Positions 30,025-42,435 of a DNA stretch of 64,000 bases are shown one piece after another. Every line of letters starts with the position of its first letter. The first letter of the stretch is position 1. The stretch is from assembly GCF_003334335.1 (NCBI RefSeq), contig NZ_QOWQ01000011.1; one strand, given 5' to 3'. The notes under the pieces were generated by a model. It was not told the origin of the DNA. It saw only the letters and a program-made list of their open reading frames with translations, and did no database searches. A program made the position numbers and the translations under genes. This DNA comes from Escherichia coli. GTDB taxonomy: Bacteria > Pseudomonadota > Gammaproteobacteria > Enterobacterales > Enterobacteriaceae.

Positions 30025-32175
30025 ATGGCATTAACCGCCGCGCTTAAAGCGCAAATTGCCGCCTGGTATAAGGCGCTTCAGGAACAGATCCCCGACTTTA
30101 TTCCCCGTGCGCCGCAGCGGCAGATGATTGCGGATGTCGCCAAAACGCTGGCCGGAGAAGAAGGGCGACATCTGGCGATTGAAGCCCCCACCGGCGTTGG
30201 GAAAACGCTCTCTTATTTGATTCCCGGCATCGCCATTGCCCGCGAAGAGCAAAAAACGCTGGTGGTGAGTACCGCCAACGTGGCATTGCAGGATCAGATT
30301 TACAGCAAAGATTTACCGCTGCTGAAAAAGATCATTCCCGATCTTAAATTCACTGCCGCTTTTGGGCGTGGGCGCTACGTTTGTCCGCGTAATCTGACGG
30401 CGCTCGCCAGTACTGTACCCACGCAACAGGATCTGCTGGCGTTTCTTGACGACGAACTGACGCCGAACAATCAGGAAGAGCAAAAACGTTGTGCGAAGCT
30501 GAAGGGCGATCTCGATACTTATAAATGGGATGGTCTGCGCGATCATACTGATATCGCTATAGATGACGATCTCTGGCGTCGTTTAAGTACCGACAAAGCC
30601 AGCTGCCTCAACCGCAATTGTTACTACTATCGTGAATGCCCGTTTTTTGTCGCTCGTCGGGAGATTCAGGAAGCGGAAGTGGTGGTGGCAAACCATGCGC
30701 TGGTGATGGCGGCGATGGAAAGCGAAGCGGTATTGCCTGACCCGAAAAATTTACTGCTGGTGCTGGACGAAGGCCATCACCTGCCGGATGTGGCGCGGGA
30801 TGCGCTTGAGATGAGCGCCGAAATCACCGCGCCGTGGTATCGGCTACAGCTGGACTTGTTCACGAAACTGGTCGCTACCTGCATGGAGCAGTTTCGCCCG
30901 AAGACCATCCCACCGCTGGCGATCCCTGAACGTTTGAATGCGCATTGTGAAGAGTTGTATGAGCTTATCGCCTCGTTAAACAACATTCTCAATCTCTACA
31001 TGCCTGCCGGGCAGGAGGCAGAGCACCGTTTTGCGATGGGCGAACTGCCAGATGAAGTGCTGGAGATCTGCCAGCGGCTGGCAAAACTCACCGAGATGCT
31101 GCGTGGCCTGGCGGAGTTATTTCTTAACGATTTAAGTGAGAAAACCGGCAGCCATGACATTGTACGTCTGCATCGGTTGATTTTGCAGATGAACCGCGCG
31201 TTGGGGATGTTCGAGGCGCAAAGCAAACTCTGGCGGCTGGCTTCGCTGGCGCAATCTTCCGGTGCACCGGTGACCAAATGGGCGACGCGGGAAGAGCGCG
31301 AAGGGCAGCTACACCTCTGGTTTCACTGCGTGGGAATACGTGTCAGCGATCAGCTGGAAAGGCTGCTGTGGCGCAGTATTCCGCACATTATTGTCACCTC
31401 CGCAACCTTGCGTTCGCTGAACAGTTTTTCGCGTTTGCAGGAGATGAGTGGTCTGAAAGAGAAAGCGGGCGACCGTTTTGTGGCGCTGGATTCCCCCTTT
31501 AACCACTGCGAACAGGGCAAAATTGTTATTCCCCGGATGCGCGTTGAGCCTTCCATCGACAACGAAGAGCAGCATATTGCCGAAATGGCGGCCTTTTTCC
31601 GTAAGCAGGTGGAGAGCAAAAAACATCTCGGTATGTTGGTACTGTTTGCCAGCGGACGGGCGATGCAGCGCTTTCTCGACTATGTGACGGATTTACGTCT
31701 GATGTTGCTGGTTCAGGGCGATCAGCCGCGTTACCGTTTAGTTGAACTGCACCGCAAACGCGTCGCCAACGGTGAGCGCAGCGTGCTGGTGGGCTTACAG
31801 TCATTTGCCGAAGGGCTTGATTTGAAAGGTGATCTGCTCAGCCAGGTGCATATCCACAAAATCGCTTTTCCGCCCATCGACAGCCCGGTGGTGATCACCG
31901 AAGGGGAATGGCTGAAAAGCCTCAACCGCTATCCGTTTGAGGTGCAAAGCCTGCCGAGCGCCTCGTTTAACCTGATTCAGCAGGTTGGGCGACTGATTCG
32001 AAGCCACGGTTGCTGGGGCGAAGTGGTTATCTACGACAAACGCTTGCTGACCAAAAATTATGGCAAGCGACTACTGGATGCATTACCGGTATTTCCGATA
32101 GAGCAACCGGAAGTCCCTGAAGGTATAGTTAAAAAGAAAGAAAAAACGAAATCCCCACGCCGTCGGCGGCGTTAA
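30025..32175 (+). CDS. dinG: ATP-dependent DNA helicase DinG
   Basis: Start set at MALTAALKAQIAAWYKALQ (716 aa) rather than the ORF-track start 45 codons upstream. Confidence 0.94.
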   Translation: MALTAALKAQIAAWYKALQEQIPDFIPRAPQRQMIADVAKTLAGEEGRHLAIEAPTGVGKTLSYLIPGIAIAREEQKTLVVSTANVALQDQIYSKDLPLLKKIIPDLKFTAAFGRGRYVCPRNLTALASTVPTQQDLLAFLDDELTPNNQEEQKRCAKLKGDLDTYKWDGLRDHTDIAIDDDLWRRLSTDKASCLNRNCYYYRECPFFVARREIQEAEVVVANHALVMAAMESEAVLPDPKNLLLVLDEGHHLPDVARDALEMSAEITAPWYRLQLDLFTKLVATCMEQFRPKTIPPLAIPERLNAHCEELYELIASLNNILNLYMPAGQEAEHRFAMGELPDEVLEICQRLAKLTEMLRGLAELFLNDLSEKTGSHDIVRLHRLILQMNRALGMFEAQSKLWRLASLAQSSGAPVTKWATREEREGQLHLWFHCVGIRVSDQLERLLWRSIPHIIVTSATLRSLNSFSRLQEMSGLKEKAGDRFVALDSPFNHCEQGKIVIPRMRVEPSIDNEEQHIAEMAAFFRKQVESKKHLGMLVLFASGRAMQRFLDYVTDLRLMLLVQGDQPRYRLVELHRKRVANGERSVLVGLQSFAEGLDLKGDLLSQVHIHKIAFPPIDSPVVITEGEWLKSLNRYPFEVQSLPSASFNLIQQVGRLIRSHGCWGEVVIYDKRLLTKNYGKRLLDALPVFPIEQPEVPEGIVKKKEKTKSPRRRRR

Positions 32176-32202
32176 TGATGTGAGTCAGGTAAGGAGTCGT
32201 AA

Positions 32203-33165
<963 letters not shown>

Positions 33166-33171
33166 TTCTTT

Positions 33172-33248
<77 letters not shown>

Positions 33249-33293
33249 ACGCCCGGCGTGCAGCATAAAAATACAACAAACACATAACATAAA

Positions 33294-34391
<1,098 letters not shown>

Positions 34392-34494
34392 AAAAAAGCC
34401 CGTCCAGTGGCGGACGGGCAAACAAGGGTAACATAGGATCAATGAGGGTTAGAGCATATGCGTCTGTCGGCAAACAGACAGGGAAATACTTGTG

Positions 34495-34617
34495 CTGGAC
34501 GTAGCGTAAACGCCTGATCCGTCCAACGGTTCGGATTTTGTAGGCCTGATAAGACGCGGTAGCGTCGCATCAGGCATCTGTTGCCGGATGCGGCGTAAAC
34601 GCCTTATCCGTCCTACG
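34495..34617. repeat. REP cluster between ybiC and ybiJ
   Basis: Several REP palindromes (GTAGGCCTGATAAGACGCGGTAGCGTCGCATCAGGC, CCGGATGCGGCGTAAACGCCTTATCCG). Confidence 0.8.
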
Positions 34618-34619
34618 AA

Positions 34620-34880
34620 TTACTTATAAATTACCGCAGTACCGCTTAATTTATTGTTGTTGGTGGCGGAAGTGATGCTGTATCCACTGGCACCGGCTGC
34701 CGCGGCTTTCTCAGCCAGTTTCGCTTCCAGGGCATCGAGGGTGGATGCGCCATCGGCAGAAACCACGCCGATTTTATTCATGTTCTGTGCCTGGGATGCC
34801 GTTACCGGTTCCGCCGCGAACACGCCAAATGACAGAGTTGAAAGAGCCATAGCAGCAACAACAGTATTGATAGTTTTCAT
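34620..34880 (-). CDS. ybiJ: DUF1471 (YhcN-family) small periplasmic protein
   Basis: 86 aa, signal peptide, C-terminal ...TAVIYK. Confidence 0.9.
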   Translation of the reverse strand: MKTINTVVAAMALSTLSFGVFAAEPVTASQAQNMNKIGVVSADGASTLDALEAKLAEKAAAAGASGYSITSATNNNKLSGTAVIYK

Positions 34881-35144
34881 AATTAATCTCTCGCAGGTGA
34901 TTTTTGTATAAGTGACGTTGTTTCGTCGATGTGATGAGTATCACGTTTTTTTACGAGAGATAAAATCGAAGAGAATTGACCGCCTTGTTCAAATAAATTG
35001 ATTGATATCTAACCTACTGATAAACCATTTATTTGTTGTACTTATGAACTTGTTTTATACCGCGTGGCAGTCACAGCAGCGTTAAAGGCACGGAATGACA
35101 CGCAAAATACAAATTATACTCGCTATGCATCTCGCCAGTTGTAG

Positions 35145-35411
35145 TTAACGTAACTGGCTGTCTTTCGAACCTCTGCGATTATATCCTGTATAAGCTGGTT
35201 TTTGTAAATCTTTCTCCTGCTGACAATGAATACATAAGCGCACGCCAGGAATGGCTTCCCGACGGGCCTGCGGGATGGGGGCACCGCACTCTTCACATTC
35301 ATCCAGGCTTTCGCCGCGCGGAATTTCACCCCGAGCGCGGGCAATCGCATCTTCAATTGTACTGTTGATCTGTTCGTTGACGGCGTCATCGTTAGCCCAA
35401 CCGGATGCCAT
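35145..35411 (-). CDS. ybiI: DksA/TraR-type C4 zinc-finger protein
   Basis: 88 aa with CxxC...CxxC. Confidence 0.85.
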   Translation of the reverse strand: MASGWANDDAVNEQINSTIEDAIARARGEIPRGESLDECEECGAPIPQARREAIPGVRLCIHCQQEKDLQKPAYTGYNRRGSKDSQLR

Positions 35412-35484
35412 ATCGACCTCCCCATATCAATACTTGTACAGTTAAGTGTAGCTAATCCAGGGACGAACTCGGGCAGTTCAAGCA

Positions 35485-36162
35485 TCAGATCTCCGACCAT
35501 TCCCGCAGCAGATTATGATAAAGATTAAGCAGCGACAGGATCTCTTCACTTTCGCCGTAGCGGCTTTTCAGCGACTGAATATTGTTGTCCAGTTCAAACA
35601 GCATGGCGCGCTTTTTATCATCGCGGATCATCGACTGGATCCACATAAATGATGCCACTCGTACGCCGCGGGTTACGGGTGTCACGCAATGCAGGCTGCT
35701 GGAGGGATACAACACGAGATCGCCTGCCGGGAGTTTTACCCGATGTTGTCCGAAGGTGTCATTAACGACCAGTTCGCCGCCGTCGTAGCTTTGTGGATCG
35801 CTTAAAAACAGCGTGGCAGAAAGGTCAGTACGCATCCAGCCGTTTTGTGGATGGCTGCGTACTGCGCCATCCACATGGAAACCATAGGTTTCATTGTTCT
35901 GATAGCGATTAAACAGCGGCGTGGAAAGGGTACGCGGCAAGGCCGCGGCAAAGAATAAAGCATGTTGGTTAACCGCGTTCAGCACCTCATTTTGCAGGGC
36001 GGCGTATAACGTGCTGCGGGTGTCGACCTGTTGATTGTTCTTAACTTGCGCACCTTGTGCGCCGGTGGTGACGCGTCCATCCACCCATTCGGCTTGTTCC
36101 AGTTGTTCGCGAAAACGAGCGACGTCCTGTGGCGATAACACGCCGGGAATGTGGTACATCAT
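35485..36162 (-). CDS. ybiX: PKHD-type Fe(II)/2-oxoglutarate-dependent hydroxylase
   Basis: Start set at [11 protein letters not shown]; lies directly downstream of fiu on the same strand. Confidence 0.88.
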
Positions 36163-36203
36163 ACAATTTCTCCAAAAAGTGGGGCCTGCGCCCCACATCT
36201 GAA

Positions 36204-38486
36204 TCAGAAATGCATATTGGCTGTGAGCAAGAAGGTTCTTGGCTCGCCCGGGTGATAACGGTAGCCGCTCTTGTTGATTGAGGCGACGTAATCGGTATCA
36301 AACAGGTTGTAAACGTTTAGCTGGAAGTCGAGATTGCGATTAACTCGATACCCCAGTTTGGCATCGGCGACCCAGTAACCTTCGGTAAACGCTGGCGTTC
36401 CCACCGCGCCGTCTGAACCTTTATGCATACTGCCGATATAGCGTGCGCCCGCGCCAACAGAGATATCGTCGGTTGCCTGATATTGGCTCCATAAGGTGAA
36501 GGCGTGCTCCGGGGTATACGGCAGCGATGAGGAACCATCCTGGGCAACATCTTTGCCGTTTTTGATGGTTGCTTTTTGCTGGGTATAGCCGCCAATCACC
36601 TGCCACGCGGGAGTGATATTCCCGGCCACGGATATCTCATAGCCTTCGACGCGTTTCTTACCGTATTGCGAGTAAGTTCCGTCATCATTTTGCTCAACTT
36701 CATTTTCGATATCAGTGCGGAACAGCGCGGCGGTGAGCAACAGACGTTTATCCAGAACCTGCCATTTGGTGCCAATCTCGCTGGTGTTGGCTTTTTGCGG
36801 TTTAAAATCGGTGCGGTTGGCACTGTTACCGCTGCCAGACTGCGCAAGGGCGAAGTTGTTGCCGCCCGGAGGCTGCTGGGAAACGGCATAGTTAATATAG
36901 ACATTGCCGTTTTCCGTCAGGTGATACAGCGCCCCGGCTTTCCAGTTCATCAGATTGCCCGACTTGGCGGTGTCGACGGTGGTGACCGGAGAACCTTTTG
37001 CCACACCAGTTGGGCAGGTGATGGCACCGCGTCCGCTGCCGCCGCAGGCGGTGGCACTGTCATATTCAGTATGATAATTATCCAGACGGATCCCGCCGTT
37101 CAGCTCAAAATCACGGGTGATTTGCAGCGTATCAAAGGCGTAAATTGCGAAGGTATCCGTCTGACCATTGGCGTTTGCGCCGTTGCGCGTCAGGCCGCCG
37201 GGATGAATGCTGCTGTCAGGATGATAAATATTTACCGCGGGTAACGTCACCGGATTAACGCCGTAGTTAGTCTGCGTTTCACGGGTAAATTCCACGCCGG
37301 TACTGACATCATGACCGATAGAACCGGTATAGAACGTCGAGGTCAGGTTGGTCTGGTTGGTGAGAATTTTATTACTCACATCTTTGGTATTCGCCGTGCG
37401 TGACCAGGTCCAGCTATTCACATCGCTGGTGGGCTGAGTAATATTCGACGCCCCGCCCATAATCGCCGTCATCAGGTAATCCTGCTTTACGCGCGACCAA
37501 CGGGTAGTATTGCGAATGGTGGTGTTATCGTTGATGTCGTGCTCAAAACGCATGGTGGCGGTGTCGGTGGTCGAATCGTCGTAATCGGAATCCGTGCCGT
37601 AAAAGTTATGAGTATCAACTTTTCCGGAATGATTCAGGGCCGCCGTTCCCGCAGATGGGGCAGAATAGCCCGGCAAACCGATGGTCGGAATGCCGCCGTC
37701 TGGCGTGTTGTGCTGGGTGACATGCAGATAATTAAGATACAAACGATTCGCTGTACCAAGGCCAAAAGCGACAGAAGGGGCGACGCCGTAACGCTCATTT
37801 TTGACTTTGTCGCGTCCGGCATCGTGCGTTTTTTCGCCCATTACATTCAGGCGCACCGCGGTGGTATCACCAATGACCTGATTGACGTCCAGCGTGCCGC
37901 GGCGGAACCAGGCGCTGCCAATACTGGCGGAGGCGTCAATGCCGGAATCATTGCGCGGCTGCTTGCTGATCATATTGATCGAGCCTGTCGGTGCGCTGCG
38001 CCCGTAGTCGGTGCCGGACGGCCCTTTAATCACTTCGACCTGCTCGGTATTGAAGGTGTCGCGCGAGACGCTGCCGATATCGCGAATGCCATCAATATAA
38101 ATACTGTTAGAGGTATCGGCACCACGCATATAAATGGCGTCGCCAGTGGTGGAGTTACCGTTCTCACCCGCAAAAAACGCACCCACGCCGGGGACGTTTT
38201 TGAGCGCGTCGGTAAGGTTGGTTGCGCCCTGATCTTTAATCACTTGTTCAGAAATTACCGTCATCGTGCGGGTAGTATCCGCTACCGGACGCGAGAATTT
38301 CGGATCGGCAGATTGTTGTGGCGCATAAAGCGAAGGCGTTGATGCTTCGACAACCAGCGTGTCATCCGCGTTAGTTTGCCCTTCGGCGGCGAGTGCCTGA
38401 GCCACAGGCGTGATGCCAATACAAAGACCGGCAAAGAACGTGAGCGAATGAAATTGTCTGGCAGGGAAATTGCGATTGTTTTCCAT
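36204..38486 (-). CDS. fiu: TonB-dependent catecholate siderophore receptor
   Basis: 760 aa, signal peptide, C-terminal beta-barrel ending in F. Confidence 0.94.
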
Positions 38487-38590
38487 TTTGCAGGTGACTT
38501 TTTCTTATATGTTGAAATTTTCACTGCCACGAGAAAGCCTCTCTGCGGATGCGATGCCACTGTTAATCCCGTGATAGTGCTCGTGAAAGT

Positions 38591-38617
38591 GATAATAATT
38601 TTGATAAGCATTATCAC
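38591..38617. promoter_or_regulatory. Fur box in the fiu promoter
   Basis: GATAATAATTTTGATAAGCATTATCAC resembles the Fur consensus GATAATGATAATCATTATC. Confidence 0.7.
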
Positions 38618-38750
38618 TTGGAGCGATTTTCTATCACCCATTGCGCGAAAAAGAAATACATTTATTTACATTGAGTTCATATTTGATGTTTTTTGATTAC
38701 AAAACAGACGAAAACTGCATCCAGAGGCGAATGCAGTTACGTTGGTGGGG

Positions 38751-39011
38751 TTATTTGTAGATGGTTGCAGTACCGAACATCTGGTCATTTCCGCCTGCGG
38801 AATTAATGACATAACCTTTCGCGCCTTGTTCGCGCGCTTTTTCTGCCAGTTTATCCTCCAGATCGCTTAGGTTTGATGCGCCAGTTGCCGAAACGGTACC
38901 GGCGGGCCGTAGCTGACCGCTGTCCAGGTTACTCATCGGTTGCGCGGCATAAGCCGTGAGAGAGATTCCGCTCAGGACGGTGGCAATCAGTAGTGTGAGG
39001 CACTTTTTCAT
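38751..39011 (-). CDS. mcbA: DUF1471 (YhcN-family) periplasmic protein McbA
   Basis: Start set at MKKCLTLLIATVLSGISLTAYA (86 aa); C-terminal ...TATIYK. Confidence 0.88.
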   Translation of the reverse strand: MKKCLTLLIATVLSGISLTAYAAQPMSNLDSGQLRPAGTVSATGASNLSDLEDKLAEKAREQGAKGYVINSAGGNDQMFGTATIYK

Positions 39012-39283
39012 AATGACATCCTCATAAATACAACGGGTAGTGCCTGATAAGTGTAGGTCGCCTGCGCGATGCAAATGACGCAAAAAATTGACAGAGATGT
39101 GCTTATTTTTTGAACGATATATTTTTACAAAATAAGACAAATCAATGACATGCATAATGCTGATTTTTATGATGAATTGCCATAAACCATAGCCATGTTA
39201 AGGTTTTGGGGAATGATAAACGCAGCCAGATATTTACCCTGTCGCGTTATGCGGGTATCTTACGCCGCTGCTTAAAGGAGAAT

Positions 39284-40213
39284 GCTATGTCCGCCCAGAA
39301 ACCGGGGTTGCATCCGCGCAACCGTCATCACAGCCGCTACGATCTCGCCACGCTTTGTCAGGTCAATCCTGAACTCAGGCAATTCCTCACGCTTACACCC
39401 GCCGGGGAGCAAAGCGTAGACTTTGCCAATCCGCTGGCGGTGAAGGCGCTCAATAAGGCGTTGCTGGCCCATTTTTACGCCGTAGCGAACTGGGATATCC
39501 CCGACGGTTTTCTCTGCCCACCAGTACCGGGCCGGGCGGATTATATTCATCACCTTGCCGATTTACTGGCAGAAGCAAGCGGAACAATTCCAGCGAATGC
39601 CAGCATTCTGGATATCGGCGTTGGTGCGAACTGTATTTATCCGCTGATTGGCGTACATGAATATGGCTGGCGTTTTACCGGTAGTGAAACCAGCAGCCAG
39701 GCGTTAAGCAGTGCGCAGGCGATTATCAGTTCTAATCCGGGGCTTAACCGCGCCATTCGTCTGCGTCGGCAAAAAGAGAGTGGGGCGATTTTTAACGGCA
39801 TCATCCATAAAAACGAGCAATACGACGCGACCTTGTGTAACCCGCCATTCCACGATTCCGCCGCTGCGGCACGGGCAGGTAGTGAGCGTAAACGCCGTAA
39901 CCTGGGGCTGAACAAAGACGATGCACTGAACTTTGGCGGCCAGCAACAGGAGTTGTGGTGTGAAGGCGGTGAAGTCACCTTTATCAAAAAGATGATTGAA
40001 GAGAGCAAAGGCTTCGCGAAGCAGGTGATGTGGTTTACATCACTGGTATCTCGTGGTGAAAACTTACCGCCGTTGTATCGTGCCCTGACGGACGTGGGCG
40101 CGGTGAAGGTGGTTAAAAAAGAGATGGCCCAGGGGCAAAAGCAGAGTCGCTTTATTGCCTGGACCTTTATGAACGACGAGCAGCGCCGCCGTTTTGTCAA
40201 TCGCCAGCGTTAA
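39284..40213 (+). CDS. rlmF: 23S rRNA m6A1618 methyltransferase
   Basis: Start set at [15 protein letters not shown]; contains the NPPF methyltransferase motif. Confidence 0.9.
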
Positions 40214-42435
40214 AGCGTTGGTTCCCCCGGCGGTAACGGTTCAGCCGGGGTCGCGCCCGGAGCAGGCAGCACCTGATAAGTCTGCACTGGCGCGCGAACG
40301 CCCGCCAGGTCGAAATGTTTTTTCACCTGGCTGTCGAGGGCAAAGCGTACCGTCCACTGTTTGAGTGGCAGCGTGGTGAACGAAACACGCAGTGTAAACG
40401 CGGTATTGCTTAAGCCGACAATCCCGGCAAAATTCGGTTCACCAATAATCAGCCCGCGAATTTCTTCGTTTTCCATTAATTCCGCTACCGCATCTTTCAG
40501 TGCCTGATTGGCTTTATCAGCATCTTCATGGCGATCAACATCATAATTTGCCACCACCGAACCAATGCCGCGGACAAAGTTAGCAAAGGTGGTTATCGAA
40601 GACCACGGAATGATGTGATACGCCCCGGTATCCTGTCGTACGCCCACGGAGCGAATCGACATCCGTTCCACTGTGCCGGTCAACGGCCCGATAGTCACCA
40701 AATCTCCAGTGTTCATGCCGTTTTCAAACTGAATAAATACCCCGGTGATAATATCTTTCACCAGCGTTTGCGAACCAAACGAGATAGCCAGACCTAATGC
40801 CCCGGCACCTGCCAGCAATGGCGCGATATTGACGCCGATTTCCGACAACACAATCATGATGGTGATGGTACTGATAATCACCGCCAGCGCGTTACGAAAC
40901 AGCGTAAGCAGGGTACGCGTGCGGGCGCTGGGTAGCGGGCGGCCATGAATATCCGAAGCCAGCCGGTTTTCGATCAAACTGGCGAGCACCGTCCAGCCAA
41001 CCGCCGAGAAGAAAAGAATGAGTGCGATACGGATCAGGATATCTACGGTTTTCTGCCCCGCGCCGTTTTGCAGCCAGTTCCAGAAATCGAACAATCCCCA
41101 TGCGCTCAACAGCAACATTACCGCCACGCAGACTGTCAGAATACGCGCCGTTTTCAGCGCCGCCGACAGCCAGCCATTCAACCGTTTTTGCAGCTCCGGA
41201 TAGTTACGCTGAGTATGTGGCGAGAGAGTGATGGTTTTCGCCAGCCAGCGGGAAAACATACCGGAAACAAACGCTGCGATACCAATAATCGCCAGGCTGC
41301 GCACCGTTGCACCCATCATAAATTTCAGGCTGTTGCCCGGATCGAACAACGAAAAGAAAAACAGCACGATAAAATAGGCGCTTGCCAGCCAGTGCCACAC
41401 CAGCGCAAAGGCGCGGATAAACAGGCTGAAAAAGGCCAGCGAATGCTCCGCGAAGTTGAGCAAATGCTGGGTAATCTCTTTTTTATTACGAAAGATCAGG
41501 TACAACGCCCAGACGGTCATGCACAGCATAATGATGACGTTCGCCAGCGCACCTATCTGTACATTCACCTGATTAGAGATAATCGGCACGGCCACAATCA
41601 GGCCATAACCTATCAAACTGCTTAACCAGCTCAGGCGACGACTCCAGTAACGGGCGCTCTCGTCCTGAATCGTGAACGGGCGCAGCTCCGCCACGTTTGG
41701 GCAAAAAATCAGGCGTAGTACGGCTTTGAAAAATTCAATGAGGGCAAAGGCGTTGAGAAACAAACTTTGTTGGAAAGCGATGGTGCGACTGCCTGCATTC
41801 AGGTTGTCGCTTAATACCTGGCCGACAAATAATGTCAGGGCCAGTAACAGCAGGTCGATAATAAACGCCCCGATAATCATCGCCGGAAGCTGCAACCAGT
41901 TGCTGCGCTCACGATTTTTTTGCCGCGCCCACTGACCCATTTTGCGATACAGCGGCAGTGCGCACAGGCGAATCAGCCAGTAAAAACCAAACACTAATAC
42001 CGCTAACATTGAAAAATGGGTCAGCGCATTGCTGAAGGTTTGTGGATTAAACGGCTTATGCGGGGAGCCGGTGATATTGCGATAAAGTTGCCCGAAGCGG
42101 GCGGAAAGGGCTTCACCATAATGGCGGCTGACTTCGGTGACCTTTTGCAGCACGGTTTGCTCTTCGACCAGCGTCGGCGGCACTATTTTTGGTACCGGTT
42201 CAGCAGGGGGCGTAGCGGCAACGGTGCGCAACTGGTCGATCAACTCTTTACGCGAGGTGTCATTATCCAGCACATCCGCCAGTGCGCCATAGGCCGCTTT
42301 TTTTTGTTCGATATCCGGTTCCGGGGCCGGTTCAGTCGTTGAGTCCGTTGTCGTTGTGGTTGTAACGCCGGGTATGGATACCGCGTGGGCAGGTGCGCCC
42401 AGCAGGCAGAAGAGGATGAACAGGATCCACCGCAT
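40210..42435 (-). CDS. ybiO: Mechanosensitive channel, MscS family
   Basis: Start set at [18 protein letters not shown] (741 aa), with signal peptide. Confidence 0.9.

Follow-up and report, generated by a model that had tools for sequence, protein, structure and literature searches.

Introduction

BhsA (YcfR), the multiple stress resistance protein of Escherichia coli and Salmonella, which has been described as induced by copper and other stresses and as associated with the outer membrane, is one of ten DUF1471 (YhcN/BhsA/McbA family) proteins encoded by E. coli strain K-12, the other genes of the set being ybiJ, mcbA, yhcN, yahO, rclB, yjfN, bsmA, yjfY and ydgH. We focus here on ybiJ and mcbA (ybiM), which lie at the two ends of positions 34620 to 39011 in a stretch of 64,000 nucleotides of E. 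coli DNA (hereafter the window; RefSeq assembly GCF_003334335.1, contig NZ_QOWQ01000011.1), on either side of ybiI, ybiX and the siderophore receptor gene fiu. A sequence-only reading of this DNA had drawn attention to the bracketing and hinted at a link between the protein family and iron uptake. Neither scans for Fur boxes, nor the anatomy of the transcription units, nor the co-occurrence of the genes, nor the literature lends support to an iron link of YbiJ or McbA. The bracketing of fiu-ybiX is very probably a matter of inherited gene order, with neither protein being part of Fiu-mediated catecholate uptake. For annotators of the fiu locus, position alone is thus no ground for giving ybiJ or mcbA a role in iron metabolism.

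DUF1471 proteins are stated to be confined to the Enterobacterales/Enterobacteriaceae, YbiJ and McbA have both been termed periplasmic, and the paralogy of these proteins has been published before (PMC4092069; bioRxiv 10.1101/2025.02.11.637708). BhsA resembles the two in its PF07338 domain, its size (85 amino acids), its Sec signal and its GTAVIYK ending, and at 47% identity to YbiJ and 43% to McbA it is as close to them as they are to each other. Its locus, comR-bhsA-ldtC, is different, and its conservation across genera (84-92% identity) is far higher than that of either. The Salmonella proteins with solved structures, SrfN, YahO and YdgH/SssB, are more distant, with identities to YbiJ and McbA under 35-40%; E. 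coli has no SrfN, a virulence factor that dimerizes and binds sulfated polysaccharide, and YdgH is made up of three domains (PMC4092069). A structural resemblance to the DUF1471 fold is reported for RcsF, the outer-membrane sensor of the Rcs system, whose phenotypes, in colanic acid and biofilm, overlap those of McbA (PMC4092069; bioRxiv 10.1101/2025.02.11.637708). RcsF is, however, a lipoprotein with disulfide bonds, whereas YbiJ and McbA have no lipobox and no cysteine in their mature parts, and sequence homology between them and RcsF is not detectable.

Neighbouring DUF1471 paralogues are known from yjfN-bsmA (yjfO), with yjfY nearby, in E. coli, as local duplication predicts, and from yhcN and a ycfR-like gene in Salmonella (PMC4092069). 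Those pairs are directly adjacent, whereas ybiJ and mcbA are split by ybiI in Enterobacter and by ybiI together with fiu-ybiX in Escherichia. As for the genes between them, fiu-ybiX is the enterobacterial counterpart of the Fur-regulated and co-conserved pairs PiuA-PiuC of Pseudomonas and CciT-CciO of Caulobacter. The loci of those pairs contain no DUF1471 genes; the flanking paralogues are an add-on of the Enterobacteriaceae only.

YbiJ and McbA in the DUF1471 family

Gene annotation was taken from the record of E. coli K-12 MG1655, with which the window is identified (NC_000913.3, identical over the 10 kb compared, window 30955-40955), a window position being the record position minus 803045. 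The coding sequences of ybiJ (b0802; 34620..34880) and mcbA (b0806; 38751..39011, from the annotated start codon) are both on the minus strand and each has 86 codons, their open reading frames reaching exactly to 34620 and 39011. An ungapped alignment spans both proteins over their whole length, with 40/86 identities (47%; BLASTP E 1e-22), and the paralogy proposed by the sequence-only reading is thus confirmed. So are the signal peptides that it had described, in that both N-termini are of the Sec type: read directly from the sequence, the putative signals consist of a lysine-rich N-terminus, a hydrophobic core and the cleavage motifs VFA↓A (YbiJ) and AYA↓A (McbA).

Residues 34-86 of both proteins match PF07338 (YdgH/BhsA/McbA-like, formerly DUF1471) over its full length (model positions 1-55 of 55), with E 1.2e-17 for YbiJ and 3e-19 for McbA. 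Each is also recognized by an NCBIfam model of its own, YbiJ by NF007611 (an equivalog; 173.1 bits) and McbA by NF040473 (of kind 'exception'; 174.5 bits). The cut-off of both models is 110 bits, and the cross-scores fall below it (YbiJ on the McbA model 80.6 bits, McbA on the YbiJ model 74.3 bits); the BhsA profile, on the other hand, outscores the partner's profile for each protein (116 bits for YbiJ, 101 bits for McbA). Both match the solved chains 2NOC (E 9e-5 for YbiJ and 3e-5 for McbA) and 2MA4 (E 4e-4 and 3e-4), and the alpha+beta fold of the solved DUF1471 members is expected for the two from these sequence matches.

The common C-terminal ending to which the sequence-only reading had pointed, TA(V/T)IYK, is present in both (GTAVIYK in YbiJ, GTATIYK in McbA) but is not specific to the pair. 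Similar endings occur in BhsA (GTAVIYK), YahO (GTANIYK), RclB (TAVLYK) and YhcN (TAELYK), and when all ten K-12 paralogues are aligned, A82 and Y85 do not vary. The ending is a signature of the whole family and therefore marks no particular bond between YbiJ and McbA. The observation on ybiJ and mcbA is in this respect real and ordinary, both their annotation and their paralogy being known already.

Gene order across genomes

Between ybiJ and mcbA lie, all on the minus strand as had been noted, ybiI (35145..35411; a DksA/TraR-type zinc-finger protein), ybiX (35485..36162; a PKHD-type Fe(II)/2-oxoglutarate hydroxylase, homologue of PiuC/CciO) and fiu (36204..38486; the TonB-dependent catecholate siderophore receptor). 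Of 5426 complete E. coli genomes, 5417 carry the region from ybiJ to mcbA essentially intact. In the ten top-ranked E. coli genomes, an insertion of the IS4 family (IS4 or IS421) lies within window positions 34000-39800, the match being split in two with a transposase annotated beneath.

For the wider comparison, a scan anchored on YbiX, with one genome per species and 10-kb flanks, gave 80 loci (numbered with L below), whose genes were identified by BLAST with the K-12 neighbours as reference and by means of a hidden Markov model for DUF1471 built from the nine single-domain K-12 paralogues. Salmonella and Enterobacter, which have no ybiX at this locus, were reached through exact look-ups of the YbiJ protein. 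The 37 ybiX-anchored loci from Enterobacteriaceae cover Escherichia, Citrobacter, Leclercia, Silvania, Klebsiella, Raoultella, Kluyvera and Pseudocitrobacter; ybiJ is present in all 36 that are assessable and an mcbA-like gene precedes fiu in 31 of the 37. The six loci that lack mcbA are those of K. spallanzanii, K. michiganensis, Kluyvera sichuanensis, two Pseudocitrobacter and one further genome, and a third Pseudocitrobacter locus (L031) retains the gene. No mcbA remnant was found at these six loci by tblastn with all McbA orthologues, and the open reading frames that occupy the slot instead have no NCBIfam family or belong to fimbrial or BglG antiterminator families.

Conservation of the arrangement, on which the sequence-only reading had made its proposal depend, is thus partial. 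It holds in Escherichia, Citrobacter, Leclercia, Silvania, Raoultella and most Kluyvera, whereas Salmonella, Enterobacter cloacae, two Klebsiella species, two Pseudocitrobacter loci and one Kluyvera depart from it. Salmonella enterica has the order ybiO, rlmF<, ybiI>, ybiJ>, <ybiB (arrowheads give orientation) and lacks mcbA, fiu and ybiX, in line with the absence of YbiM from Salmonella stated by Eletsky et al. (PMC4092069). Enterobacter cloacae has rlmF<, mcbA>, ybiI>, ybiJ>, <ybiB, with an McbA 62% identical to that of E. coli and without fiu-ybiX. The iron module is also seen to decay naturally beside intact DUF1471 genes. In Citrobacter sp. Awk 4 (L048, 9402-10644), fiu and the 5′ part of ybiX have been deleted, with mcbA, ybiI and ybiJ intact, and in Leclercia adecarboxylata NCTC13032 (L050) fiu is truncated and ybiX is missing.

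The converse separation is found outside the Enterobacteriaceae. Nine loci from Pantoea, Rouxiella, Serratia and Tatumella contain fiu-ybiX (L047, from Tatumella, has ybiX with no fiu detected), and in these Erwiniaceae/Yersiniaceae loci neither a DUF1471 gene within 10 kb of ybiX nor a nearby ybiI was found. In the 34 loci of Beta-, Gamma-, Alpha- and Epsilonproteobacteria, ybiX directly follows a TonB-dependent receptor gene and nothing else is common to them, and no DUF1471 gene lies within 10 kb of ybiX in the local windows of these non-Enterobacterales. Across nearly all 80 loci ybiX is paired with a fiu-like receptor (undetected in L047, L048 and L082), in keeping with the co-conservation of the receptor-dioxygenase pair across Proteobacteria (bioRxiv 10.1101/2024.10.16.618771), and fiu-ybiX is the only pair that is consistently kept or lost together. 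As for ybiI, it adjoins ybiJ wherever it is present, including in genomes without fiu-ybiX, and 8 of the 37 ybiX-anchored loci, of Kluyvera and a few others, have fiu, ybiX and ybiJ but no ybiI (L008, L026, L032-L034, L036, L038 and L039).

Since each element occurs without the others, the bracketing is best read as inherited gene order rather than as an iron unit. The genera that share the occupied insertion site belong to both major branches of the Enterobacteriaceae, and the five-gene order is therefore taken to be ancestral, with Salmonella and Enterobacter having lost parts of it; loss, and not repeated gain, would thus explain the genomes without fiu-ybiX. In G+C content fiu-ybiX does not differ from its flanks, which gives no sign of a recent horizontal arrival. 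On this account, an old proteobacterial module, fiu-ybiX, would have entered a small mcbA-ybiI-ybiJ neighbourhood between rlmF and ybiB in the ancestor of the Enterobacteriaceae, and later losses would have removed fiu-ybiX in Enterobacter, mcbA-fiu-ybiX in Salmonella and mcbA alone in some Klebsiella, Kluyvera and Pseudocitrobacter.

Transcription units and Fur control

The regulatory anatomy of the locus also sets mcbA, and less clearly ybiJ, apart from the iron genes. That the bracketed fiu-ybiX locus is regulated by Fur, as the sequence-only reading had it, is borne out by an array of predicted Fur boxes at the fiu promoter (38585..38621; four overlapping 19-mers in a 6-bp phase, matching 15, 14, 14 and 13 of 19 consensus positions) and by membership in the Fur-1 iModulon (PMC10164565). 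The array overlaps a -35/-10-like pair (38637..38610, minus strand) about 100-135 bp upstream of the fiu start and lies downstream of mcbA. When matches to the 19-bp Fur consensus were counted along the whole window, it was both the best match and the only strong array, and a consensus search allowing at most three mismatches found no site in the window. No site with at least 13/19 matches lies upstream of ybiJ, and the best match in the mcbA/rlmF intergenic region, 13/19, is at chance level, that score being reached 16 times in the window. Neither Salmonella nor Enterobacter has Fur-like sites upstream of ybiI, ybiJ or mcbA. The Fur-1 iModulon includes fiu, ybiX and ybiI and does not include ybiJ or mcbA (PMC10164565), and a study of serum and Fur names ybiX, fiu and ybiI only (PMC4145685).

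Directly past the mcbA stop codon, an intrinsic terminator is predicted from folding (38698..38742, minus strand; a 10-bp stem of ACUGCAUUCG and GGAUGCAGU with a U-rich tail behind it; -18.7 kcal/mol, z -5.25, 0/200 shuffles). Its stem is kept 3′ of mcbA in Escherichia, Citrobacter, Leclercia, Silvania and Enterobacter, and mcbA is therefore insulated from the fiu promoter. According to Zhang 2008, as cited in PMC4092069 and PMC13343897, McbR/YncC acts as the repressor of ybiM/mcbA, a gene with effects on colanic acid and biofilm. The ybiJ gene is among those most strongly induced at pH 4.4, its induction being exclusively pH-dependent (PMC10746267). Its 3′ untranslated region (3′UTR) holds the small RNA (sRNA) ZbiJ (asYbiE; b4814; 34390..34486, minus strand), which carries the seed AACCCUCAUUGAUCC and ends in a terminator hairpin at 34398-34419 (annotation; PMC8175672; PMC8545128) with a fold z of -5.25. 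ZbiJ represses the translation of rpoS (PMC8545128).

Taken together, these data point to YbiJ and McbA being independent, single-domain members of the DUF1471 family, small, Sec-exported and concerned with envelope stress, a reading to which the matches to 2NOC and 2MA4 add support. The mcbA gene would form a transcription unit of its own, with the McbR-repressed promoter known from the literature and the conserved terminator, and ybiJ another, acid-induced according to the literature and ending in the ZbiJ terminator, whereas the Fur-controlled unit would be fiu-ybiX, with ybiI co-expressed. McbA, once derepressed, would perturb colanic acid and biofilm formation, and YbiJ would serve as an acid-stress protein. 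Their field of action would be envelope stress and biofilm physiology, perhaps by way of a surface resembling that of RcsF, and not siderophore transport. What stands out as unexplained in the Fur iModulon is ybiI, the constant neighbour of ybiJ wherever it is present.

Inherited order or a role in iron uptake

Several observations weigh against regarding the bracketing as inherited order. The order mcbA-fiu-ybiX-ybiI-ybiJ is kept in 30 of the 36 assessable Enterobacteriaceae loci, which a weak functional association would predict as well; the polarity assumed for the losses rests on the genus tree; no canonical terminator was found by terminator scan and folding in the 264-nt spacer between ybiI and ybiJ, so that some Fur-dependent read-through into ybiJ and ZbiJ may occur; and, in RNA interaction by ligation and sequencing (RIL-seq), chimeras between fepA and the ybiJ-ybiC intergenic RNA, which is ZbiJ, were recovered mostly under iron starvation (PMC11979758). 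If the kept order reflected function, YbiJ and/or McbA would assist Fiu-YbiX in taking up catecholate iron, for instance by partnering the receptor in the periplasm. The likeness of the DUF1471 fold to RcsF, which contacts outer-membrane barrels (PMC4092069; bioRxiv 10.1101/2025.02.11.637708), and the position of bhsA in K. pneumoniae, two genes from a TonB-dependent receptor gene, would fit such a partnership. However, neither gene has a Fur box or belongs to the Fur iModulon, mcbA is terminated ahead of the fiu promoter, and the known controls differ (McbR for mcbA, acid for ybiJ). Furthermore, ybiJ persists in Salmonella and both genes persist in Enterobacter without fiu-ybiX, fiu-ybiX does without DUF1471 genes in the nine other Enterobacterales and 34 non-Enterobacterales loci, and the other eight paralogues are scattered in unrelated contexts. 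We thus consider a functional partnership in iron uptake extremely unlikely.

A connection to iron could instead lie at the level of RNA, through ZbiJ and not the proteins. Read-through from the Fur-controlled fiu-ybiX-ybiI unit would raise ZbiJ in iron starvation, and ZbiJ would then act on fepA or other iron mRNAs. Apart from the missing ybiI-ybiJ terminator and the fepA chimeras, this proposal can draw on the 5′ end of ZbiJ, for which neither a mapped transcription start nor an RNase E site accounts (PMC8175672). The iron-starvation bias of the chimeras is, however, ascribed by the authors of PMC11979758 to the abundance of fepA. A first duplex test of ZbiJ against the leaders of fepA, fiu, ybiJ, mcbA and ybiI gave no signal. 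When pairing of the seed with translation-initiation regions was compared with shuffled sequences, fepA (z +0.1) and fiu (z +0.8) did no better than the shuffles, whereas the positive control rpoS was recovered (z -3.3, 0/500 shuffles, positions -28..-6). Moreover, ZbiJ is equally conserved in Salmonella and Enterobacter, both of which lack fiu-ybiX. Such a link therefore appears improbable, and inherited gene order remains the reading that we prefer.

Origin of the pair

How the two paralogues came to lie so close together is a separate matter, for which local duplication, which is usual in the DUF1471 family, is the most likely origin. Given ten members in 4.64 Mb, 0.085 family pairs would be expected by chance within 4.4 kb; a pair at this distance thus goes beyond chance, and yjfN-bsmA, a directly adjacent DUF1471 pair in K-12, shows the same habit. 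In Enterobacter cloacae, mcbA and ybiJ are only 677 bp apart, with ybiI as the sole intervening gene. Sequence identities among the paralogues are close to one another: YbiJ and McbA share 47% over their full length and 50% over the mature domain, YbiJ and BhsA 47% and 46%, McbA and BhsA 43% and 44%, and YbiJ and YhcN 45% over the full length.

Two results keep local duplication short of proof. Neighbour-joining bootstraps on 69 distinct sequences, namely the K-12 paralogues and, from about 40 loci, the orthologues of YbiJ and McbA (64 usable columns), support the YbiJ clade at 79% and the McbA clade at 81%, but leave a three-way split between YbiJ+McbA (30%), McbA+BhsA (21%) and YbiJ+BhsA (11%). 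In addition, McbA and its positional orthologues always score second best on BhsA and not on YbiJ, both with the NCBIfam profiles (101 bits against 74 for E. coli McbA) and by BLAST with 33 orthologues. It is conceivable, if rather doubtful, that the genes arrived independently, mcbA deriving from the bhsA lineage and landing in a variable slot between rlmF and fiu when ybiJ was already linked to ybiI. The point-estimate neighbour-joining tree indeed groups McbA with BhsA, and the slot upstream of fiu is variable, being filled by fimbrial genes, a BglG antiterminator or unknown open reading frames where mcbA is missing. McbA also evolves faster, with a mean within-clade identity of 65% as against 80% for YbiJ, and with identities to the E. 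coli protein outside Escherichia of 45-74% as against 70-85%. Furthermore, the 3′UTR sRNA seed discussed below is common to ybiJ and bhsA, and E. coli mcbA is without it. Set against this are the bootstrap for McbA+BhsA, which at 21% is lower than the 30% for YbiJ+McbA, the mature-domain identity, which peaks at YbiJ-McbA (50%), the presence of ybiI alone between the two genes in Enterobacter together with the family habit of duplicating locally, and a CCCTCA motif (CCCUCA in RNA) in the 3′ flanks of mcbA in Citrobacter and Kluyvera. Local duplication thus stays the preferred origin.

A seed shared by ZbiJ and BhsB

ZbiJ is conserved in Escherichia, Citrobacter, Leclercia, Silvania, Salmonella, Enterobacter, Klebsiella and Raoultella, with a nearly invariant terminator and the seed GCUCCAACCCUCAUUGACCC. 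The bhsA 3′UTR likewise contains an annotated sRNA, BhsB (L003 5304-5403, plus strand), and the two have in common the seed AACCCUCAUU, which is C-rich and resembles an anti-Shine-Dalgarno sequence. An exact 11-mer, UAACCCUCAUU, stands at the same relative position upstream of both terminators, and a shared word of at least 11 nt is reached in 3 of 2000 shuffles. With a covariance model built from 18 ZbiJ orthologues, BhsB was the best non-self match in 163 kb (30.3 bits, E ~2e-5), and weaker matches were found in the bhsA 3′UTRs of K. pneumoniae (23.7 bits), Salmonella and Leclercia. In yhcN, ACCCUCAUC follows directly past the stop codon and is itself followed by a terminator. Further coordinates for the seed observation are L005 5803-5854 and, in L092-L095, about 1756-1880.

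The shared seed, 11-mer and model match suggest a joint duplication of gene and sRNA. The branch comprising YbiJ and BhsA (and perhaps YhcN and McbA) would then have duplicated an exported-protein gene together with its 3′UTR-derived Hfq sRNA, making ZbiJ and BhsB paralogous sRNAs, a proposal to which we give an even chance. In Klebsiella, the seeds of both ZbiJ and BhsB read CCCUG and not CCCUCA, which hints at concerted change, through gene conversion or a shared target. Were the proposal true, the stress genes ybiJ and bhsA would have overlapping post-transcriptional outputs and there would be a small family of paralogous sRNAs. No statement of the relationship was found in PMC8175672, which named both sRNAs and in which no word beginning 'paralog' or 'homolog' occurs. 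In a side comparison, the BhsB seed paired with the Shine-Dalgarno region of mcbA (AUGAGGA; leader -55..-4) with z -2.9, 3 of 500 shuffles being as good, which among 14 tests is not significant alone.

Other features of the locus

No Rfam family corresponds to ZbiJ, naRNA4 being the only family matched in this region. That match is a repetitive extragenic palindromic (REP) element between the ybiJ stop codon and ZbiJ (34543..34613, minus strand; RF02564, naRNA4/REP-type, 78.4 bits, above the gathering threshold), next to which a second lies at about 34500-34540. REP elements are found at this place in Escherichia only, where the ZbiJ seed motif stands 173 nt past the ybiJ stop, as against 35-96 nt in other genera. 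Because the REP element is repeated, BLAST returns multiple places per E. coli genome (median 11). Antisense to ZbiJ is ybiE (b4769; 34458..34517, plus strand), annotated as a small protein of 19 amino acids (PMC8545128).

Within the iron genes, the 41-nt spacer between fiu and ybiX holds a terminator-like site (36179..36196, minus strand), consisting of the GC-rich hairpin GUGGGGCGCAGGCCCCAC and a U-run, which could act as a partial terminator within the operon and so keep ybiX expression below that of fiu. A -10-like GCTAYAMTTA just upstream of ybiI is conserved in Escherichia, Salmonella and Citrobacter, and ybiI may thus have a promoter of its own besides read-through from fiu-ybiX. A 14/19 match to the Fur consensus lies at 35511-35529, in the 3′ end of ybiX and about 100 bp upstream of ybiI.

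The genes beside comR-bhsA include one for a TonB-dependent receptor in K. pneumoniae (L093 1-373) and one for a siderophore-interacting protein (SIP/FAD_binding_9) in Buttiauxella (L095 1-591). This would make bhsA a second DUF1471 gene near iron-uptake genes, which may be coincidence. Finally, a motif containing an AATGTA direct repeat, AATGTAAATAAATGTATTT, precedes the Fur boxes of fiu by about 40-50 bp (window positions ~38655-38672, minus strand). It is absent from Enterobacter, which has no fiu, and is kept at the same position (L012-L040) in Escherichia, Citrobacter, Klebsiella, Raoultella and Kluyvera, with a variant in Leclercia; it could be an UP element or the site of some regulator.

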